DNA of 62,866 bases, filler included. It is 5 parts of 5 records of this genome, joined end to end, with 100 filler letters (N's around TTAATTAATTAA, not from the genome) between each part and the next. Parts side by side here need not be neighbours in the genome. Positions count along the whole stretch, not along the records: positions 1 to 29,806 come from SRR20825015_141; 4 more parts are not named here. One strand, 5' to 3'. Of the stretch, positions 1,485 through 21,373 are shown piece after piece. A program made the translations under genes and the position numbers. The notes beneath the pieces are model-generated. The model did not search any database and was not told the origin of the DNA. It worked only from the letters and a program-made list of their open reading frames with translations. Each line of letters opens with the position of its first letter. Within the stretch, counting starts at the first letter, position 1.

Positions 1485-2585
1485 TCACATCAATTTTTTC
1501 GCAAGGTATAGGTATTGCTGAGGCAAATGATGCTGCCAAATGTTAACGTTTTCAGGATCATTATTGTACAATTCATAATAATCACTCTCTGGATAAAGCA
1601 CTATAGTATTGCCCGTCCGGACATAATAATTGCTGTTATAGTATTCTGGAGTCTTGAAGTTAGGAATTTGTTTCTTGACCGCTTGAGATACCATTTTACC
1701 CAAGTACTTTTCATAATTTCTTTGAGCCTTCAAACTTGGTTTACTCAAGTTATTGTACACTTTTTTTAGGGCGAGATTGACAGGGAATTTTTGCTTTTTA
1801 ATTAATGATTTTGCGTTTCTAAATGGGTTCATATTTGTAAAATCATCCACGGTTTGAACAGAAAAAGGGACATCTGGAACCCAATCAACAGTATTCACAA
1901 CATTAAATGCCCACCCGCCTTTCGTCATATTCTCGTAATCGTAGGCAAAAAACAAATTCCCAGGTTTAGGTCCAGCACTGCAATACGTCTTGAAGCGAAT
2001 ATCTTGGGGCAATTTATTCTCAAGTTTTAAATTTTCCAGATAGGCATTGAGCATGTAGGTAATCCCACCGCCTTGACTATGTCCAGTAAGTATAAAATCC
2101 TTAATTCCTGTTTTGTAGCACGAATCAATTTTTGCTTCTATTGTTCGAGAGAGATACGCCATTGCTACGAACCAACCAACTTGAACAGCGGCTCTAGGGT
2201 TTTCAGCAAGTTTATATTTGAAAAGAAAATCGTCATCCAATTGAAGTTCGCCAGTAGCTGGAACCATTGCCGCATATAAGTTCGCCAGAAAACTTGCTTC
2301 TGTTTGAATACTTCCTTGAACAGCGATCATGGCTACATGTTGATCCTTTTTAATCCATAAATCCCAAATATTATCGAAAGCTACAACGGGTGAGCGATAA
2401 ATAAAATCGAAGTCTTGCGGCAACGGCATTGCGGTATCTCCTGCCCAATCATCAAGAGGAATGTGTGTTTTGTAGTTAATTTTTAAAGTCTCTATATACT
2501 CCGCTTTGTCAAATCCAGGTGTTAAGTGTTGTCCGTACAAGATTGAAACGAAGAAAATAAAACTGATTAGAGTAAGAACTTTCAT
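1485..2585 (-). CDS. Secreted class 3 lipase-family alpha/beta hydrolase
   Basis: Signal peptide; nucleophile elbow LTGHSQGGG; PKPGN and VNTVDWVPDVP motifs. Confidence 0.85.
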   Translation of the reverse strand: MKVLTLISFIFFVSILYGQHLTPGFDKAEYIETLKINYKTHIPLDDWAGDTAMPLPQDFDFIYRSPVVAFDNIWDLWIKKDQHVAMIAVQGSIQTEASFLANLYAAMVPATGELQLDDDFLFKYKLAENPRAAVQVGWFVAMAYLSRTIEAKIDSCYKTGIKDFILTGHSQGGGITYMLNAYLENLKLENKLPQDIRFKTYCSAGPKPGNLFFAYDYENMTKGGWAFNVVNTVDWVPDVPFSVQTVDDFTNMNPFRNAKSLIKKQKFPVNLALKKVYNNLSKPSLKAQRNYEKYLGKMVSQAVKKQIPNFKTPEYYNSNYYVRTGNTIVLYPESDYYELYNNDPENVNIWQHHLPQQYLYLAKKLM

Positions 2586-2723
2586 AAGATTTCGGATTAA
2601 GGTTATATGGTATATGGATTTTGATGAAAAAATAATGGTTCAACTCAAATATACAAGTATTTATCCAAAATAAACTGGAGATCAGAAAGCACTGTTTTAA
2701 AAATAATTCAAAAGAAAAATTAT

Positions 2724-2744
2724 CTGCGCAAAATTATTGCGTAG
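2724..2744. promoter_or_regulatory. Palindromic operator candidate upstream of the ncRNA array
   Basis: CTGCGCAA-AATTA-TTGCGTAG, 7 of 8 arm positions complementary; lies just upstream of a near-consensus Bacteroidota -7 element AATCTTTG (2753-2760; consensus TAnnTTTG). Confidence 0.6.
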
Positions 2745-2794
2745 TACAGTTTAATCTTTGACCTGTCGAAAGGCAAAAACGTTCTTTTAAATAC

Positions 2795-2860
2795 AGCAGG
2801 TCAAGAATCAAGTTACTTCAAACACACCCTTAAACGTAATAACTTATTCAATTATCTGCT
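2795..2860 (+). ncRNA. Y RNA-like hairpin, unit 1
   Basis: AGCAGGT(2795-2801)/ATCTGCT(2854-2860), bulged C2802, AA/TT, AA bulge 2850-2851, GAAT/ATTC, AAGTTA/TAACTT; TTACTTC at the top of the stem. Confidence 0.7.
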
Positions 2861-2865
2861 TAAAT

Positions 2866-3054
2866 GAGGCAGTAGCTCAGATGGTAGAGCAGGTCAGCTT
2901 TTAAATTACCTAACGCAACAAGTACGTGGTGAAACGGATTTTAAATGGTCGACTAAAGCATTGTTTACAGCGCCGCGGTCGTACCTATGGTCAATAAAGG
3001 CTTACTTGAGCACTTCTAATGCCCGGGTCGTGGGTTCGAATCCCACCTGCCTCA
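2866..3054 (+). ncRNA. tRNA-like RNA (anticodon UCU) with a 116-nt inserted Y-like bulged-helix arm, unit 2
   Basis: Acceptor GAGGCAG/CTGCCTC-A; D arm GCTC-AGATGGTA-GAGC; anticodon arm GAGCA-CTTCTAA-TGCCC (3008-3024); variable GGGTC; T arm GTGGG-TTCGAAT-CCCAC; insert 2892-3007 in which 2896-2910 pairs with 2989-3002. Confidence 0.8.
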
Positions 3055-3055
3055 C

Positions 3056-3132
3056 TTTTGGTCAAAACTAACTTACTACTGATCGGCACTTACGGTTCGA
3101 ATCCGTCTTTGAGAGTTTGTTAATAACCAAAA
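3056..3132 (+). ncRNA. Y RNA-like hairpin with T-arm, unit 3
   Basis: TTTTGGT/ACCAAAA closing stem, GGTCA-N8-TTACTA 5' strand, internal ACGG-TTCGAAT-CCGT (3092-3106); upper stem less regular than in the other units. Confidence 0.65.
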
Positions 3133-3136
3133 AAAA

Positions 3137-3231
3137 CATGGGTCAACATGATCTTACTTCGTTGTCCAGGTTCGAATCCTGGTCTCCGAAAGGAGGACGA
3201 TTGGTTGAATTTAGAATGTGAATTACCCATG
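3137..3231 (+). ncRNA. YrlA-like RNA with permuted tRNA-like domain, unit 4
   Basis: CATGGGT/ACCCATG, bulged C3144, AA/TT, AA bulge; TTACTTC; T arm CCAGG-TTCGAAT-CCTGG (3166-3182) directly followed by TCTCC-GAAA-GGAGG (3183-3196) and a TTGGTT D-loop-like segment. Confidence 0.75.
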
Positions 3232-3236
3232 GAAAT

Positions 3237-3311
3237 TTAGGTCAATTGTTTCTTACTTCTGGGGATTTCCCCACCATTTTACGGCAATGATTTAGAAACA
3301 AGATTACCTGA
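3237..3311 (+). ncRNA. Y RNA-like hairpin, unit 5
   Basis: TTAGGT/ACCTGA, bulged C3243, AA/TT, GA bulge 3302-3303, perfect TTGTTTCT/AGAAACAA; TTACTTC; internal hairpin TGGGG-ATTT-CCCCA. Confidence 0.75.
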
Positions 3312-3337
3312 TTTATTAAACTTTAAAAATTAGAATT

Positions 3338-5581
3338 ATGAAAAGAGATTTATTAAAAGTATCCATTCGAAAAAATGCAATTGTGATTCCTTCGGATTGG
3401 ATCATGAATGAAACAAGTGTGGCATTTAACGAGACAACAGGCGTATTGTTAGCCAATTGCTCAAAATTGGGATATACTTTTTCAGAAGATTTATTGAAAA
3501 AAGTTAATGGAATTTCTCCGATTGCGAAACTGGAATTGTTCGAACTCTTAAAAGAAGTTTCAGGTGTAAACAAGAATTGGACGCCACTTGTTAAACAATG
3601 GAATGTGCCAACCGGAGAATCTGTGTTGGATCATATTGTGACTTGGTTCGCAAATGTTTTTCAAGTGAACGGAGGAACGAAACTCCCATGTGGTCATTCG
3701 ATTTTGGAGAACACTTTTCCGATTGAAAGATACAATGGTTGCCCATACTGTGGAACACCATTTGAATTTGCTGAATTGGAGTATGTTGGAGGTGTCAACA
3801 AGCTCAAAATATTGAATCTGTGGACGGAAGAGGATTTGATGAACGAACTGAAGAGTTTGTTGATGTCTCCTGTGGCGTTGGATGCTACTCAAGCGGATAG
3901 TTTAAAGAAACTGCTTGCGACTTTTGGTTTACCTGAAGGAATCGAAATCAGTATGAAAGAAACTGTAATGATGGTGATCGACGCGCTTGCGGAAGTTGGT
4001 AAAACGGAAGAGGCTGGAACGCTGTTTAAAACACCAAATGATGTTTTGAGGTATTTGTGGTACAAAAAAACAGGATTTTTACAGCTACTTGAACCGAAAA
4101 CAATTGCTAACAGAATGCGAAAAAATGCATTGAATCTGCATGCTCGCTTGGATCAAAGCACCGAAACCAAAATCAAGTCTTTGGAAGATTTGAAGTTGAA
4201 ATTTAATCGTGTGGAATGTAAGCAATATGCGACTTGGTTAACGCAACTGAACATGAATGTTGCAGATCAATGTGAAATCATGCATCCGAAAAGAGGAATG
4301 TGGGTGAGGGTGATTCGTGCACTTCGATTGGCAGAATACAGTAAGAGAAAAGGGTTCGAAAAGCTTGCTGAGCTGTTGGACTTCTTCTACAACGAAAAGT
4401 ACGAAGTTTGGCAAGGAAAGGTGAACGCGCATAAACTAAAAATGGACGCAGAGGCGACGTTTGAACTGTTAAAACAAAGACCGGGATTGTTCGCAAGATC
4501 TTTATTCTCTTCGATGTTATGGTTTGGACCCGATCTTTCAATCGCGCACTTCAAGGAAATAATGCACAAAGTACCATCGAGATTGATCTTCACGCTAAAT
4601 ATGTATGCGGAGGTGTATTTTGATAAGAACGCCATAAGAACCGTGAAACCGTTAGGAGGAGTGAGTAAAAGAGTTCCTTTGAATAAATTACTTCAACTCT
4701 ACTCGGATGAGAAATTGCAAAGAATGCATTCGCTTGTGCAGGAGTTAAGTTTGGAAGTAATCAAAGAGAACTTGAGAGGAGTCCATAATCCAAATACTAC
4801 GATGTTTATTGATAAGGGCTTGTTCAATATTCCAATCTCGATAGGAGATAGAGGTGAACATGTTCAGGATTTGCAGGGAGCATTGATGGGATCTAAGTTC
4901 AATGTTGAAGGAGATACTGTTCGATTGTTTTTACAATGGGGGGAAGGACTTCCAGCTCAGCATCTTGATATGGATTTGAGTTGTAAAGTATCTTACGAAA
5001 AGAAAAGTGAGTTCTGCTCATATTCTCAACTCGTAATTCCCGGATGTAAACATAGCGGCGATATTAGAAGTATTCCTAATAAAGTAGGAACCGCCGAATA
5101 CATCGACCTCGACTTGAATGAACTGGCGAAACTAGGCGCGAAATATGTGACTTTCACATGTAATGCGTACTCAAATGGAAGTTTGACTCCGAACCTGGTG
5201 GTTGGTTGGATGAATAGCAAATATCCAATGAAGATTTCCTCGAGCGGTGTGGCATACGATCCAACGGCAGTTCAACATCAGGTGAGAATTAAGCAAAACC
5301 TTACAAAGGGTCTCGTGTTCGGTGTCTTGGATGTTGTAAAAAGAGAAATAACGTGGTTGGAAATGAGCTTCGATGGACAATTGGTCCAAAATTTAAATCT
5401 AGAAACACTAGAAGGAATGCTCAACAAGTTGAACGCTAAATTGAAAATTGGCGATTTACTTACATTGAAAGCCGAAGTTCAAAGGTTGACCATTGTGGAA
5501 GATTCAGAAAAGGCTGATGAAGTTTATTCTATGGATTGGGCAATGAACACAGCCGACGTAAGTAAATTATTTTTAGAATAA
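3338..5581 (+). CDS. Zn-finger (prokaryotic RING-like) + long helical region + C-terminal TerD-like domain protein; candidate Ro/TROVE-like RNA-binding protein
   Basis: LPCGH...GCPYCG metal-ligand motif; central LLKQRPGLFARSL helical region; C-terminal LFLQWG...DMDLS...HSGD...AEYIDLDL TerD signature. The Ro/TROVE relation is inferred from the adjacent RNAs. Confidence 0.7.
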   Translation: MKRDLLKVSIRKNAIVIPSDWIMNETSVAFNETTGVLLANCSKLGYTFSEDLLKKVNGISPIAKLELFELLKEVSGVNKNWTPLVKQWNVPTGESVLDHIVTWFANVFQVNGGTKLPCGHSILENTFPIERYNGCPYCGTPFEFAELEYVGGVNKLKILNLWTEEDLMNELKSLLMSPVALDATQADSLKKLLATFGLPEGIEISMKETVMMVIDALAEVGKTEEAGTLFKTPNDVLRYLWYKKTGFLQLLEPKTIANRMRKNALNLHARLDQSTETKIKSLEDLKLKFNRVECKQYATWLTQLNMNVADQCEIMHPKRGMWVRVIRALRLAEYSKRKGFEKLAELLDFFYNEKYEVWQGKVNAHKLKMDAEATFELLKQRPGLFARSLFSSMLWFGPDLSIAHFKEIMHKVPSRLIFTLNMYAEVYFDKNAIRTVKPLGGVSKRVPLNKLLQLYSDEKLQRMHSLVQELSLEVIKENLRGVHNPNTTMFIDKGLFNIPISIGDRGEHVQDLQGALMGSKFNVEGDTVRLFLQWGEGLPAQHLDMDLSCKVSYEKKSEFCSYSQLVIPGCKHSGDIRSIPNKVGTAEYIDLDLNELAKLGAKYVTFTCNAYSNGSLTPNLVVGWMNSKYPMKISSSGVAYDPTAVQHQVRIKQNLTKGLVFGVLDVVKREITWLEMSFDGQLVQNLNLETLEGMLNKLNAKLKIGDLLTLKAEVQRLTIVEDSEKADEVYSMDWAMNTADVSKLFLE

Positions 5582-5603: not shown

Positions 5604-5640
5604 TAGAAGGCTCTGCAATTGCGGAGCTTTCTAGTTTTTT
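5604..5640 (+). terminator. Intrinsic terminator closing the ncRNA-protein unit
   Basis: TAGAAGGCTCTGC-AATT-GCGGAGCTTTCTA hairpin followed by GTTTTTT. Confidence 0.75.
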
Positions 5641-6827
5641 ACACATTTTAAACGCTCCATCGTATTGTTATCGTGGTGAATAATCACATGATAAATTCCA
5701 GAAGATATTTTACCTGAAAGATCGTCAACTATTCCATTCGTGTTTTCATCGTACGGCGCGCTGTAAATCATTTTTCCCATTCCATTGTAAATGTCGATTG
5801 AACTGATCTGCTCACCACGAACGATCAGTTCACCATTTAAGAAATGCGCTACGGTAACACCAGATTGGCAATTATTGATGGAAATCATTTTGAACTCTTC
5901 AGTTCTACCGTCAAAGTCAGTTTGACTCAGCTTATAGTAGTTCGGTTGTCCGTCAATATTGTTCAAAGCCAACCAGCTATAAGATTTTTTCTCTTGCGAA
6001 TTTCCAACACCATTAATAATTCCAACAGCTTTGAAATCGACTCCGTCTGTTGAGTGTGAGATTGTAAAATAATCGTTGTCGATTTCTGAAGCAACACTCC
6101 AAGTGAGTTCCGGAACATTGTTAACACACTCGTATCCAAAGTCGATGAATTCAACGGGTAACGGAACGGAACAGTTTACAGTACAAAATGAGCTTATCAA
6201 ACCTGTTGAAGCTGTAGGAGCAACAGTTGAAGTACGAATGATTAAAATGGTGTGTCCAGCTTGAGCTGCAGTTGCCGTGAACGTGTACGTATTCGTTGTC
6301 CATGCAGTTCCCGCTGCGGTTAGATTTGGCATTGCAACTGCGCCGCCCATTGTCCCAGCGGTGTTACTGAATACCTGTGGAGAAAACGATCCTGTGCTTC
6401 CAGTTCCGTGACTTACCGAAGTAATATTGTATGAATAGGTTTGTCCACTTACAAGAGGAGCACTCAATCTAAATCCAAATGCTTCTCCACCACTTGTCCA
6501 TGCGGTACCTGAACCAATAAAAACAGCTCTACATCCTACGTTTCCCGAGATCGGTGGGATTGTTAAATTCGCGCCTGCGTATGACCCCGTCCATCCTGAT
6601 CCATTCCATGAGATTAAATCAGCGTCTGCTACATTTAGCAAATTGGCAGAAGAAGCGAAACCGGTGCTCGGCGTGGCAGACATAAAACAAGGATCTAATA
6701 CTATTTGACCAAAGGAACAAAACGATAGTAGAAAGAACGCACTGCATCCTAACGCTTTTTTTATACTTTTCGGGGCGTGCTTCATGTTTACAAAATTAAG
6801 GTCGAAGTTACGGGCGGTCTCAATCAT
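5631..6827 (-). CDS. Type IX secretion (T9SS type A C-terminal domain) cargo protein
   Basis: Signal peptide, Ser/Thr/Gly-rich beta domain, PLPVEF...W.VASEIDNDYF...YYKLSQTDFDG module, CTD IYNGMGKMI...SGIYHVII...KCVKN; true start may be the second Met. Confidence 0.8.
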   Translation of the reverse strand: MIETARNFDLNFVNMKHAPKSIKKALGCSAFFLLSFCSFGQIVLDPCFMSATPSTGFASSANLLNVADADLISWNGSGWTGSYAGANLTIPPISGNVGCRAVFIGSGTAWTSGGEAFGFRLSAPLVSGQTYSYNITSVSHGTGSTGSFSPQVFSNTAGTMGGAVAMPNLTAAGTAWTTNTYTFTATAAQAGHTILIIRTSTVAPTASTGLISSFCTVNCSVPLPVEFIDFGYECVNNVPELTWSVASEIDNDYFTISHSTDGVDFKAVGIINGVGNSQEKKSYSWLALNNIDGQPNYYKLSQTDFDGRTEEFKMISINNCQSGVTVAHFLNGELIVRGEQISSIDIYNGMGKMIYSAPYDENTNGIVDDLSGKISSGIYHVIIHHDNNTMERLKCVKN

Positions 6828-7470: not shown

Positions 7471-8862
7471 TTAGATGCTTTTTAGTTCTGAAATAATTTT
7501 TCCTAGTCCAACTTTTGCGTCAGCAAGCAATAAATCGCAATTATCAGCATCAAAAAGCGGATTTGAAATACCAGCATATCCCGTTGCTAAGCTTCTTTTT
7601 ATGACAACTACCTTTTTTGCCTTGTATGTTTGGATAATTGGCATTCCGTAGATTGGACTATTTTCATCTGATTCTGCAGCGGTATTCACAACATCATTTG
7701 CTCCAATAATGAAGCAGTAATCGGTTTCAGAAAGGTATTCATTTCCCAAATCGAGGTCTAGAATTTCATCGTAGTTAATATTCGCTTCCGCAAGTAAAAC
7801 GTTCATGTGTCCAGGCATTCTTCCTGCTACAGGATGGATTACAAACTTTAATTCAATGTCCAATTCACTCAAGTGTTCTTTGAGTTCAAAGCACAACTTT
7901 TGGGCCTGTGCAACTGCCAACCCGAATCCTGGGACAATTACCACCCGTTTTGAAAAAGTCAGTTCGCTTGCAATTTTAGCTGTCGTCGTCTCCTGAATGT
8001 TTGTGTAAATCGTCGCACTTGAATTAGATTGCTGAGGTTTTCGTTTTGAAAAGAACACACGTATGAGTGAAGTATTCATTGCGCGACTCATCTGGATGGT
8101 GAGAATAACTCCCGTGAATCCAACAAATACGCCGAGCAGAATCATGATGGTATTCTCAAAATATACTCCGGAAATTGTCGTGATAATTCCAGTGAGTCCG
8201 TTAAGCACAGCAATAAGTACTGGCATGTCTGCGCCTCCAACACCATTCGCAAAGAAGATCCCGTTGAATAAACTAGAAATGAACAGAAGTATAATGTAAA
8301 GGATAAATTCGGAGTAACTTTCTGTGAAAATTCCTTGAAGGATGATTATTATACAAATAACAAGTGTAATCGCTGTGAAAGCTTGGTTCCTTGAAAATGA
8401 AATCCCGAATTTTCCGCTGAGCTTGAGAAAAGCGAGGATACTCCCTGAAAAGGTCATTAAACCAAGGTAAAGAGATCCGAGTAACAAGGCTTTAATTCCA
8501 ATACCGATCGAATCGTAAGCTACCAATATGCCAGCAAGACTTATGAGAGCTGCTGAGAGTCCACCGAATCCGTTGAACAAAGAGACTAATTCAGGCATTC
8601 GAGTGATTTCAAACGCGAAGGAGATTCTTTTTCCAAGTGCAATACCGAGTAGGAGTAAACCTGCGATGAACAGCCAATTGTGCCAGTAAAAATCTAATTC
8701 CAGGTTTGTACTGATAAGCAAGGTGCTAAAAATGGCTATAAACATACCGAGAACCATGACAAAGTTCCCTCTTTTAGCCGTGCCGGGATTGTTCATTTGG
8801 ACCATTCCAAGAACAAAAAATACAGTGGCAAATAAATAGCCCAAATTTCCAGTGATTGCCAT
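7471..8862 (-). CDS. pntB: NAD(P) transhydrogenase subunit beta
   Basis: MPELVSLFNGFGG, GGADMPVLI, VPGFGLAVAQAQ, IHPVAGRMPGHMNVLLAEA, IGANDVVN. Confidence 0.95.
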   Translation of the reverse strand: MAITGNLGYLFATVFFVLGMVQMNNPGTAKRGNFVMVLGMFIAIFSTLLISTNLELDFYWHNWLFIAGLLLLGIALGKRISFAFEITRMPELVSLFNGFGGLSAALISLAGILVAYDSIGIGIKALLLGSLYLGLMTFSGSILAFLKLSGKFGISFSRNQAFTAITLVICIIIILQGIFTESYSEFILYIILLFISSLFNGIFFANGVGGADMPVLIAVLNGLTGIITTISGVYFENTIMILLGVFVGFTGVILTIQMSRAMNTSLIRVFFSKRKPQQSNSSATIYTNIQETTTAKIASELTFSKRVVIVPGFGLAVAQAQKLCFELKEHLSELDIELKFVIHPVAGRMPGHMNVLLAEANINYDEILDLDLGNEYLSETDYCFIIGANDVVNTAAESDENSPIYGMPIIQTYKAKKVVVIKRSLATGYAGISNPLFDADNCDLLLADAKVGLGKIISELKSI

Positions 8863-21288: not shown

Positions 21289-21298
21289 GAATGTGTTG

Positions 21299-21373
21299 TG
21301 GGAGTTGAGGGATTCGAACCCCCGACCCTCTGCTTGTAAGGCAGATGCTCTAAACCAACTGAGCTAAACTCCC
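21299..21373 (-). tRNA. tRNA-Val(TAC)
   Basis: GGGAGTT TA GCTC AGTTGGTTTA GAGC A TCTGC CTTACAA GCAGA GGGTC GGGGG TTCGAAT CCCTC AACTCCC A; CCA not encoded. Confidence 0.97.

Follow-up and report, generated by a model that had tools for sequence, protein, structure and literature searches.

Tandem handle-bearing, partly tRNA-like RNAs in the leader of a gene for a predicted Ro60-like protein: a candidate Ro60/Y-RNA-type system in Bacteroidota

The window considered here is a stretch of 62,866 nucleotides (nt), the first part of which comes from SRR20825015_141. Near its beginning, five RNA units stand in tandem directly upstream of a gene for a protein of 747 amino acids (aa). Comparison with related loci supports the view that these are conserved structured RNAs sharing one sequence-specific helix, called the handle below, and carrying a variable, partly tRNA-like cargo. 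The RNA structure is real and lies on the + strand, and the linkage of the RNA to the 747-aa gene is exclusive. The reading favoured for the locus, with a probability of roughly 0.6, is a new type of Ro60/Y-RNA-like particle that would act in an RNA-repair regulon under WYL control. An invariant core with covarying helices, a varied cargo, linkage to a single gene and a Ro60-like product are together what one would expect if modular adaptor RNAs carried a handle for protein docking, as Y RNAs do. The units and the gene are arranged as follows.

2793..2862, + strand: unit 1, a plain-loop handle (5' strand at 2799-2817 and 3' strand at 2840-2856, closed by the stem GCAG/CUGC).
2866..3054, + strand: unit 2, a five-armed tRNA mimic.
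3054..3134, + strand: unit 3, a handle with a T arm as cargo (at about 3090-3106) and an AA/UA mismatch in the core.
3135..3230, + strand: unit 4, a handle with a T arm and a GAAA-capped hairpin (closing stem CAUGGGU/ACCCAUG).
3234..3314, + strand: unit 5, a handle with a hairpin as cargo, ending 24 nt before the start codon.
3338..5581, + strand: open reading frame (ORF) of the 747-aa protein, with an N-terminal region that contains a C-H-C-C zinc ribbon (residues about 1-155), a helical domain (about 160-490), a beta sandwich of predicted TerD fold (about 500-690) and C-terminal helices.

A regular-expression scan finds five copies of GGTCA-N7-10-TTACT, starting at 2799, 2989, 3060, 3141 and 3240. 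These copies lie on the + strand, at the very positions that a preliminary description of this DNA had given, and the window has no further copy on either strand. In the RNA, the 5' strand of the handle reads GGUCAA, then a stem of about 8 base pairs (bp), then UUACUUC. The 3' strand reads the complement of the stem, then N-A, then UUA(C/U)C. The partner strand lies downstream of the motif in units 1, 3, 4 and 5, and upstream of it in unit 2.

The architecture is as the preliminary description had claimed. GGU is matched by ACC, or by AUC in unit 1; the C that follows never varies and has no partner; AA is paired to UU, unit 3 having the one mismatch there; and the upper stem of about 8 bp leads to UUACU. 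The same description had placed a bulge of two purines on the opposite strand. Such a 2-nt bulge is present, but it is not always two purines: it reads N-A, with an invariant A, and among 233 scored units AA occurs in 116, CA in 81 and GA in 16. The differing cargoes had been listed correctly as a plain loop, a whole tRNA, a T arm, a T arm with a GAAA hairpin, and a simple hairpin. T arms are found in units 2, 3 and 4 and a D arm only in unit 2, while units 1 and 5 have no tRNA-like part. In every unit the stem is followed by UUAC, an instance of YUAY.

The arrangement is conserved in 68 related loci taken from species genomes. In 66 of them the motif is found upstream of the orthologous gene, in one to seven copies (four or five copies in 45 loci). 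The two loci without it have either no upstream DNA or only 297 nt. Every instance is on the strand of the gene and at most 1 kb upstream, and the distance from the start of the last motif to the gene is 62-132 nt, with a median of 88. GGTCAA is intact in 287 of the 288 instances and TTACTTC in 273. An invariant core between freely varying flanking helices is the pattern of a protein-recognition site. The bare motif is as common as a reversed control across five related genomes (10-34 forward and 11-28 reverse occurrences per genome, against 14-59 for the control), and it clusters at the array locus only.

A covariance model, R1, was built only from orthologues of the last unit (unit 5). Among 55 distinct orthologues of that unit, 94.0% of the cells of a 16-pair helix are paired, against 38-48% when the partners are slid by 1-3 columns. 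Ten of the 16 pairs are changed on both sides, and the observed values were reached by none of 500 shuffles. Each of the seven variable pairs of the upper stem shows up to five pair types, and little or no variation is seen in the core, which consists of GGU paired with A-C/U-C, AA paired with UU, the unpaired C, the last U:A pair and UACUUC. Since pair 8:78 is G:U in 39 of the 55, the RNA is on the + strand only. When 86 distinct units of all detected classes are taken together, pairing extends to 93.5% of cells and covariation to 12 of 16 pairs, in an alignment that is fitted to the model and biased towards R1. The covariation of the shared helix, which had been read from the five units of one locus, is strong.

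In the window, R1 recovers units 1, 3 and 4 and nothing else at E<1 in 62.9 kb. Unit 1, which had no part in building the model, scores 46.7 bits (E 3.6e-9), unit 3 24.8 bits (E 1e-3) and unit 4 22.4 bits (E 4e-3); unit 5 scores 62 bits. The preliminary description had recommended a search for like helices upstream of homologous genes with such a model, and they are found: over the window and the 68 loci (604 kb, both strands), all 220 matches at E<=0.01 lie on the + strand upstream of the gene. Searches of five whole genomes find the array locus only, apart from a duplicate contig in one genome. That contig (C25 of genome G001, a Flavobacterium procerum assembly; L073 3300-6600) is a 15-kb duplicate ridden with homopolymer errors. 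With 26 stops in its copy of the gene, it is rejected as a second array and regarded as an assembly artefact.

An even sample of 151 Bacteroidota genomes, searched with stricter filters and with 33 candidates scored per genome, so that weak matches may be missed, gives the RNA in 4 genomes. A close homologue of the protein occurs in the same 4, and the RNA is directly upstream of its gene each time. One further genome has only an SCO0854-type relative of the protein, 28% identical.

The T-arm and D-arm sequences are tRNA-derived, and the folding energies of units 3 and 4 are unremarkable. Both facts would suit decayed remnants of tRNA genes, or chance repeats, without a function of their own. 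However, the array is kept across Bacteroidota orders whose proteins are only 48-79% identical, its stems covary around an invariant core, and it is tied to a single locus. This explanation is effectively refuted.

The units were also folded singly by minimum free energy (MFE), a check that gives a divided answer. The handle is reproduced in units 1 and 5 (z -3.4 and -3.3, respectively), but units 2, 3 and 4 are unremarkable. The MFE fold of unit 2 (z -1.0) contains the acceptor, D, handle, anticodon-like and T arms. The upper stem of unit 4 is absent from its MFE fold and appears in the R1 alignment with one non-standard pair. The T loop of unit 3, GTTCGAATC, starts at 3095, and that of unit 4 at 3170.

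Unit 2 has the most elaborate cargo. Its parts are the following.

2866-2872 with 3047-3053, + strand: acceptor stem of 7 bp, with a discriminator A at 3054.
2875-2890, + strand: D arm, with GG.
2896-2910 (3' partner strand) with 2989-3002 (GGUCAA strand), + strand: handle arm, an extra long arm.
2911-2988, + strand: insertion of 78 nt in the cap loop, at the far (GGU/ACC) end of the handle arm.
3010-3022, + strand: anticodon-like hairpin, with the loop CUUCUAA on a 3-bp stem.
3030-3046, + strand: T arm with UUCGAAU, preceded by a GGGUC variable region.

The handle of unit 2 is circularly permuted. Its 3' partner strand comes 5' of the GGUCAA strand, and the tRNA-like body caps the UUACU end. 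Within that body, the handle stands between the D arm and the anticodon-like hairpin. ARAGORN calls the unit at 2866-3055 when introns are allowed; neither default ARAGORN nor Rfam at gathering calls a tRNA at 2866-3054. With introns allowed, a handle-containing tRNA-like unit is found in 57 of 69 sources, with "anticodons" that are inconsistent among orthologues. The Rfam tRNA model scores two unit-2 orthologues at 54 and 47.8 bits by skipping an insertion of 56-60 nt. From 35 orthologues, RNAalifold derives the acceptor, D and T stems together with the permuted handle, and 11 of its 28 pairs are compensatory. A role as a decoding tRNA is rejected on account of the extra arm, the missing default calls and the inconsistent anticodons.

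The cap loop of the handle arm is only 4-7 nt long in the orthologues L010, L001, L003 and L005, and most orthologues lack the 78-nt insertion. In the window, the insertion contains a degenerate handle-like pair (GGUCGAC ... GUCGUACC), which is paired in the MFE fold. In loci L004 and L009, a whole unit that has a T arm of its own is nested inside the cap loop of unit 2. Judging from such sequences, modules seem able to insert into each other. Some Flavobacterium loci (L010, L011, L014, L017, L019, L037 and L062, at about 2200-2450) have, ahead of the main array, an additional set made up of a promoter-operator, one plain-loop unit and one tRNA-like unit. In this extra tRNA-like unit, the handle takes the place of the anticodon loop within a normal anticodon stem. 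The layout of the extra set, which brings some Flavobacterium to 6-7 units, suggests a segmental duplication.

In 26 of 66 tRNA-like units, mostly in Flavobacterium, the handle is followed by a hairpin with the loop CUUUUAA; in 12, the window's included, that loop is CUUCUAA. On a stem of 3 bp, CUUCUAA resembles an anticodon loop of the Arg(UCU) type and CUUUUAA one of the Lys(UUU) type. tRNA-Lys(UUU) is a classic target of anticodon nucleases, and WYL domains bind nucleic-acid ligands. The tRNA mimics might then be sentinels or decoys for tRNA-cleaving toxins: the cleavage products would signal to the WYL regulator, or the mimic would soak up the nuclease, and the handle would serve mainly for stability or processing. 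The 38 anticodon-type 7-nt loops among the 66 units fit this idea, as do the enzymes for repair of cleaved tRNAs that the regulon encodes. However, the anticodon-like stem is only 3 bp long and 28 of the 66 units have no such loop. The idea also accounts for the tRNA-like unit alone, and not for the invariant handle on every module or for the plain-loop units. As the whole explanation of the locus it is improbable; it is compatible with a Ro60/Y-RNA-like particle rather than exclusive of one.

Signals for transcription are found on both sides of the array and its gene.

2724..2744, no strand assigned: operator-like palindrome, CTGCGCA-N7-TGCGTAG, upstream of the array promoter and the sole strict match in the window.
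2752..2770, + strand: probable -7 region of the promoter (TAATCTTTG), with transcription presumably starting near 2767-2770.
5604..5643, + strand: terminator-like hairpin of 13 bp with a T run, after the ORF.

The TTTG box follows the palindrome at a like distance in the other loci that were read, and it agrees with TAnnTTTG, which we take to be the Bacteroidota -7 consensus. Between 2767 and 3338 no terminator-like site is found on the + strand, and the hairpin after the ORF, itself at 5604-5633, is where a terminator had been claimed (5604-5640). The array lies in the leader of the gene and is probably co-transcribed with it, as had been predicted. A run presumed to be RNA yields one contig of 238 nt (depth 2, 100% identity) that covers 2876-3113, that is, most of unit 2 and the start of unit 3, with no flanking ORF; it is too thin to interpret.

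An alternative is that the leader is purely cis-acting. The modules would then stay on the mRNA as repeated sites for autoregulation or sensing, whether of the protein itself or of tRNA-handling enzymes. This is unlikely, although the array invariably stands immediately upstream in the orientation of the ORF, no terminator comes between the two, and the last unit, which is without tRNA-like cargo, keeps a fixed distance from the start codon (a median of 88 nt from the motif start). The acceptor stem of unit 2 is 7 bp long, and the features of a tRNA elbow are complete. By analogy with the YrlA of M. smegmatis (Wang et al. 2018, 10.1101/312249), this stem and elbow would be expected to let RNase P cut the leader. 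Two to seven modules with different and individually conserved cargoes exceed the needs of an autoregulatory site. In addition, the promoter and operator are repeated inside Flavobacterium arrays, where the palindrome recurs before the internal promoters, which suggests that the RNAs can be made without the mRNA.

A relaxed form of the palindrome, RCGCA-N6-8-TGCGY, is found at most 1 kb upstream of the gene in 55 of the 68 loci. In Flavobacterium, a 17-bp palindrome (ACGCAAAATAAYTGCGY) stands before array promoters and before genes for an Rnl1-like RNA ligase, Hen1 and RtcB. An example can be found in locus L019 (positions 2037, 2123, 2448, 6354 and 7625), where the copy at 6354 precedes the Rnl1-like ligase and that at 7625 precedes Hen1. 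A palindrome common to the array and to repair genes gives the outline of a WYL-type RNA-repair regulon in Bacteroidota, without RtcR-type control at these loci. The factor that binds the palindrome would be the neighbouring WYL-WCX regulator.

The flanks of 21 related loci were scanned with Pfam, and repair genes were counted up to 3 kb away. Repair-type genes (RtcB, RlaP, RNA ligase, Hen1, PrfH-like RF-1, WYL-WCX) occur in 14 of the 21. RtcB is encoded in 9 loci and the WYL-WCX regulator in 7, often divergently from the array. RlaP occurs in 4, usually as two copies directly downstream, a PrfH-like RF-1 protein in 2, other RNA ligases (RLIG1; T4 Rnl1-like) in 2 and Hen1 in 1. In the window itself, the genes flanking the locus encode a class-3 lipase and a protein with a type IX secretion system (T9SS) tail, and the remainder is housekeeping.

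The 747-aa protein has more than 4157 homologues. Among the matches listed, identity is 61-79%, and they come from many Bacteroidota, with Fluviicola taffensis at 77%. The profile NF041916 ("MXAN_6230/SCO0854 family RING domain-containing protein") matches with 134 bits (E 5.6e-39), against a cut-off of 600 bits, and aligns end to end (residues 11-698 with profile positions 7-726 of 842). By this match, the protein is a distant relative or subfamily of NF041916 and not an equivalog. Pfam adds a weak Prok-RING_4 match on the C-H-C-C cluster at 117-139.

An AlphaFold2 model made with 30 homologues (pLDDT, the predicted local distance difference test, of 79) has a mixed N-terminal region, a helical domain and a beta sandwich. 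In this predicted structure, the helical domain is closest to Ro60, and the C-terminal beta sandwich has a TerD fold at the place where Ro60 has its vWA domain. Foldseek with the whole model finds only TerD; low-probability rows for large multidomain proteins were taken as noise. Searches of the 747-aa protein with Pfam TerD and with PDB profiles give no sequence match to TerD, and the PDB profile search gives nothing meaningful. A weak NFACT_N match in 3 of 26 domain sequences was judged not meaningful. A search of the ESM Atlas returns only the protein's own family, and PADLOC has no match. A literature search found no paper on the function of the NF041916 family, and Prok-RING_4 appeared only in eukaryotic surveys.

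Comparison with Ro60 and its RNAs shows both common and separate features. The Ro60-contacted motif is described as GGUCCGA in metazoa and as GNCGAAN0-1G in bacteria, in a stem of two distant strands (Chen et al. 2014, PMC4201824). The handle's GGUCAA shares GGUC and a following A with GGUCCGA, and fits neither of these patterns exactly. A conserved YUAY begins the V loop of YrlA (PMC4201824), whose crystal structure has a kink made by the UA of YUAY (10.1101/312249). The Y RNA-like character proposed in the preliminary description stands as far as the GGUC-type 5' strand and the YUAY after the stem are concerned, but the units have no Rfam match and no rsr gene nearby. The Rfam YrlA and Y_RNA models give no match in 2500-3500 even at E<=10, where only T-arm fragments, transfer-messenger RNA (tmRNA) and plastid motifs are reported. 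Nor do YrlA (RF02553) and Y_RNA (RF00019) match in loci L019 and L010 at E<=1, and Rfam at gathering finds only a tRNA-Val (21299-21373) in the whole window. Bacterial Y RNAs had been said to lie usually beside the Ro gene. That placement is not seen here, as the neighbouring proteins give no TROVE match and the 747-aa protein has no TROVE match at E<=0.01.

Like Ro60/Y-RNA systems, the locus combines modular RNAs in which a conserved docking-type stem is joined to a tRNA-like module (PMC4201824; 10.1101/312249). As with Yrn1 of D. radiodurans, the rsr-yrlBA-rtcBA locus of Salmonella and YrlA, the RNAs adjoin the protein gene on the same strand and are sometimes several. In related loci they also have RtcB and other RNA-repair genes for company, and Ro60 is the nearest structural match for the helical domain predicted in the protein. 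Unlike YrlA and Y RNAs, which have GNCGAA(N)G or GGUCCGA, the RNAs have a handle that reads GGUCAA...N-A-UUAYC. They stand ahead of the ORF as an array that forms its leader, and plain hairpins and a five-armed tRNA mimic that is not permuted are among their cargoes. Unlike Ro60, the protein would have a zinc-ribbon N-terminus in addition and TerD in place of vWA, and it has no TROVE sequence signal. The regulator, too, appears to differ, being of WYL type with a palindromic operator and not RtcR with sigma-54.

Genuine TROVE genes can occur in the same genomes. Of 5 genomes with the array, 3 yielded a TROVE gene and 2 did not; where present it is elsewhere in the genome, about 70 kb off in G005. 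These rsr genes have their own adjoining YrlA-like RNA with a different 5' motif, GNCGUAGA. Its stem starts GUCGUAGA or GCCGUAGA, followed by (U)UACUUCG. UACUUC after the stem is common to both handle types and corresponds to the YUAY of YrlA (PMC4201824). R1 has no match at rsr loci, and with the distinct RNA found there this indicates two handle types in one genome, each beside its own protein gene. On this sequence comparison, the array's partner is not the canonical Ro60. Two of the rsr-adjacent RNAs, in Aquimarina and a Flavobacterium, are unannotated (L069 2733-2870; L070 540-650, - strand). They score 38 and 31.7 bits with the Rfam YrlA model, below its gathering threshold of 69, and L069 has an apparent second YrlA-like copy starting near 2905.

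It has to be considered whether the handle is read by another factor, such as Rsr/Ro60 where present, the WYL regulator, RtcB or RlaP, while the downstream protein is merely co-regulated. The resemblance of GGUCAA to the Ro60-contacted GGUCCGA (PMC4201824), the TROVE protein in three of the five genomes and the WYL and RtcB genes close by in many loci would agree with this. Nevertheless, it is rather doubtful. The array is present in the two genomes where no TROVE gene was found, Rsr has an adjoining RNA of its own with a different 5' motif, and in the 62.9 kb of the window the array and the gene occur without any gene for RtcB, RlaP or a WYL protein. The 747-aa gene is the only constant companion of the RNA.

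In the favoured reading of a Ro60/Y-RNA-like particle, the locus would be one transcription unit that runs from the operator through the promoter, the five RNA modules and the ORF to the terminator. The leader would be processed into separate RNAs, probably with RNase P acting at the 7-bp acceptor stem of unit 2. The handle would be the docking site for the 747-aa protein encoded directly downstream, and that protein would be a helical scaffold like Ro60, preceded by a zinc ribbon and carrying TerD at the place of vWA. One protein and several alternative tRNA-mimicking adaptor RNAs could then form a set of Ro60/Y-RNA-like particles, which may act in RNA surveillance and repair. A WYL-type repressor would control them and, in related genomes, also RtcB, RlaP, RNA ligases and Hen1.

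Several observations weigh against this reading. The topology of unit 2 is that of a normal tRNA and not of the permuted YrlA type, and for units 3 and 4 the folding energy is no better than that of shuffled sequences (MFE z -0.75 and -0.64). The core pairs (GGU/AYC, AA/UU) never vary, so that the bulged-C geometry is a model and is not demonstrated by covariation. No RNA-repair gene lies within 3 kb of the locus in the window or elsewhere in its 62.9 kb. Foldseek on the helical domain does not find Ro60, or anything below E 0.07. TROVE is not detected by hhalign against an alignment of 18 TROVE sequences (probability 0.15%, both alignments being of low diversity) or by Pfam TROVE (PF05731), which matches none of 26 helical-domain sequences at E<=10. 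Finally, no handle, T loop or R1 match is found upstream of distant SCO0854-type relatives (28% identity) in 8 loci (L078 and 7 metagenomic ones), R1 having been run on one of them. The resemblance to the Ro60 fold in the predicted structure is the best available lead; membership of TROVE is not supported by sequence.

A more far-reaching version of the reading is possible but tentative. Bacteroidota would have a second Ro60-type ribonucleoprotein system, parallel to Rsr/YrlA, in which a Ro60 fold and a zinc ribbon are joined to a TerD sensor of ligand or Ca2+. One handle would serve interchangeable tRNA-mimic adaptors, one of them showing a Lys(UUU)- or Arg(UCU)-like loop. As sentinels or decoys for tRNA-cleaving toxins, they could tie damage sensing to a WYL-controlled regulon of RtcB, RlaP, ligase and Hen1.

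To our knowledge, Ro60/Y-RNA particles are the only RNA-surveillance particles made from a ring protein and modular tRNA-like adaptor RNAs. The locus looks like a second system on the same plan with a different C-terminal domain. Since the handles differ, no cross-loading is expected in genomes with both systems. The family is large (over 4000 proteins; about 3% of the sampled Bacteroidota species), its carriers include cultivable strains of Flavobacterium, Chitinophaga and Fluviicola, and up to seven clearly separable adaptor RNAs occur per locus. The hypothesis of one scaffold with many adaptors is therefore directly testable. The locus also provides a context for RNA families that are absent from Rfam, and a plausible role for a large protein family annotated only as "RING finger family 4 / hypothetical".

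Other known systems are related more loosely. Burroughs and Aravind are said to have proposed, in 2016, RNA-repair modules built from a scaffold and a noncoding RNA, such as Rot/TROVE with Y RNAs and SPFH/Band-7 with a tRNA-like RNA. The present loci would resemble those modules, as reported, in having a scaffold and tRNA-like noncoding RNA amid ligases, RlaP nucleotidyltransferases and end-modifying enzymes. The literature search found no description of the array or of a Ro60 link for the protein family; Burroughs & Aravind 2016 and Sim et al. 2020 lay outside that search and may bear on novelty. TerD is a Ca2+-binding beta sandwich of tellurite resistance (PDB 2kxt, 2qz7, 3ibz); here it appears fused to a Ro60-like scaffold and is not in a ter operon. 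Unlike the present family, a Bacteroidota protein closer to NF041916 (L078, 458 bits) and the 7 metagenomic relatives have no handle array upstream.

Two further observations concern the window and its relatives. The sole canonical tRNA in the window, by ARAGORN and by Rfam at gathering, is a tRNA-Val(UAC) at 21298-21373 on the - strand. Its anticodon loop, CUUACAA, shares CUUAC with the handle's CUUACUUC junction, probably by coincidence. A second, unrelated palindrome of 16 bp (ACGCACTGCAGTGCGT and variants) is found between genes in Flavobacterium, often just past them (L025 1496 and 5275; L049 5273, 5349 and 5414), and it looks like a repetitive extragenic palindromic (REP)-like or terminator repeat.

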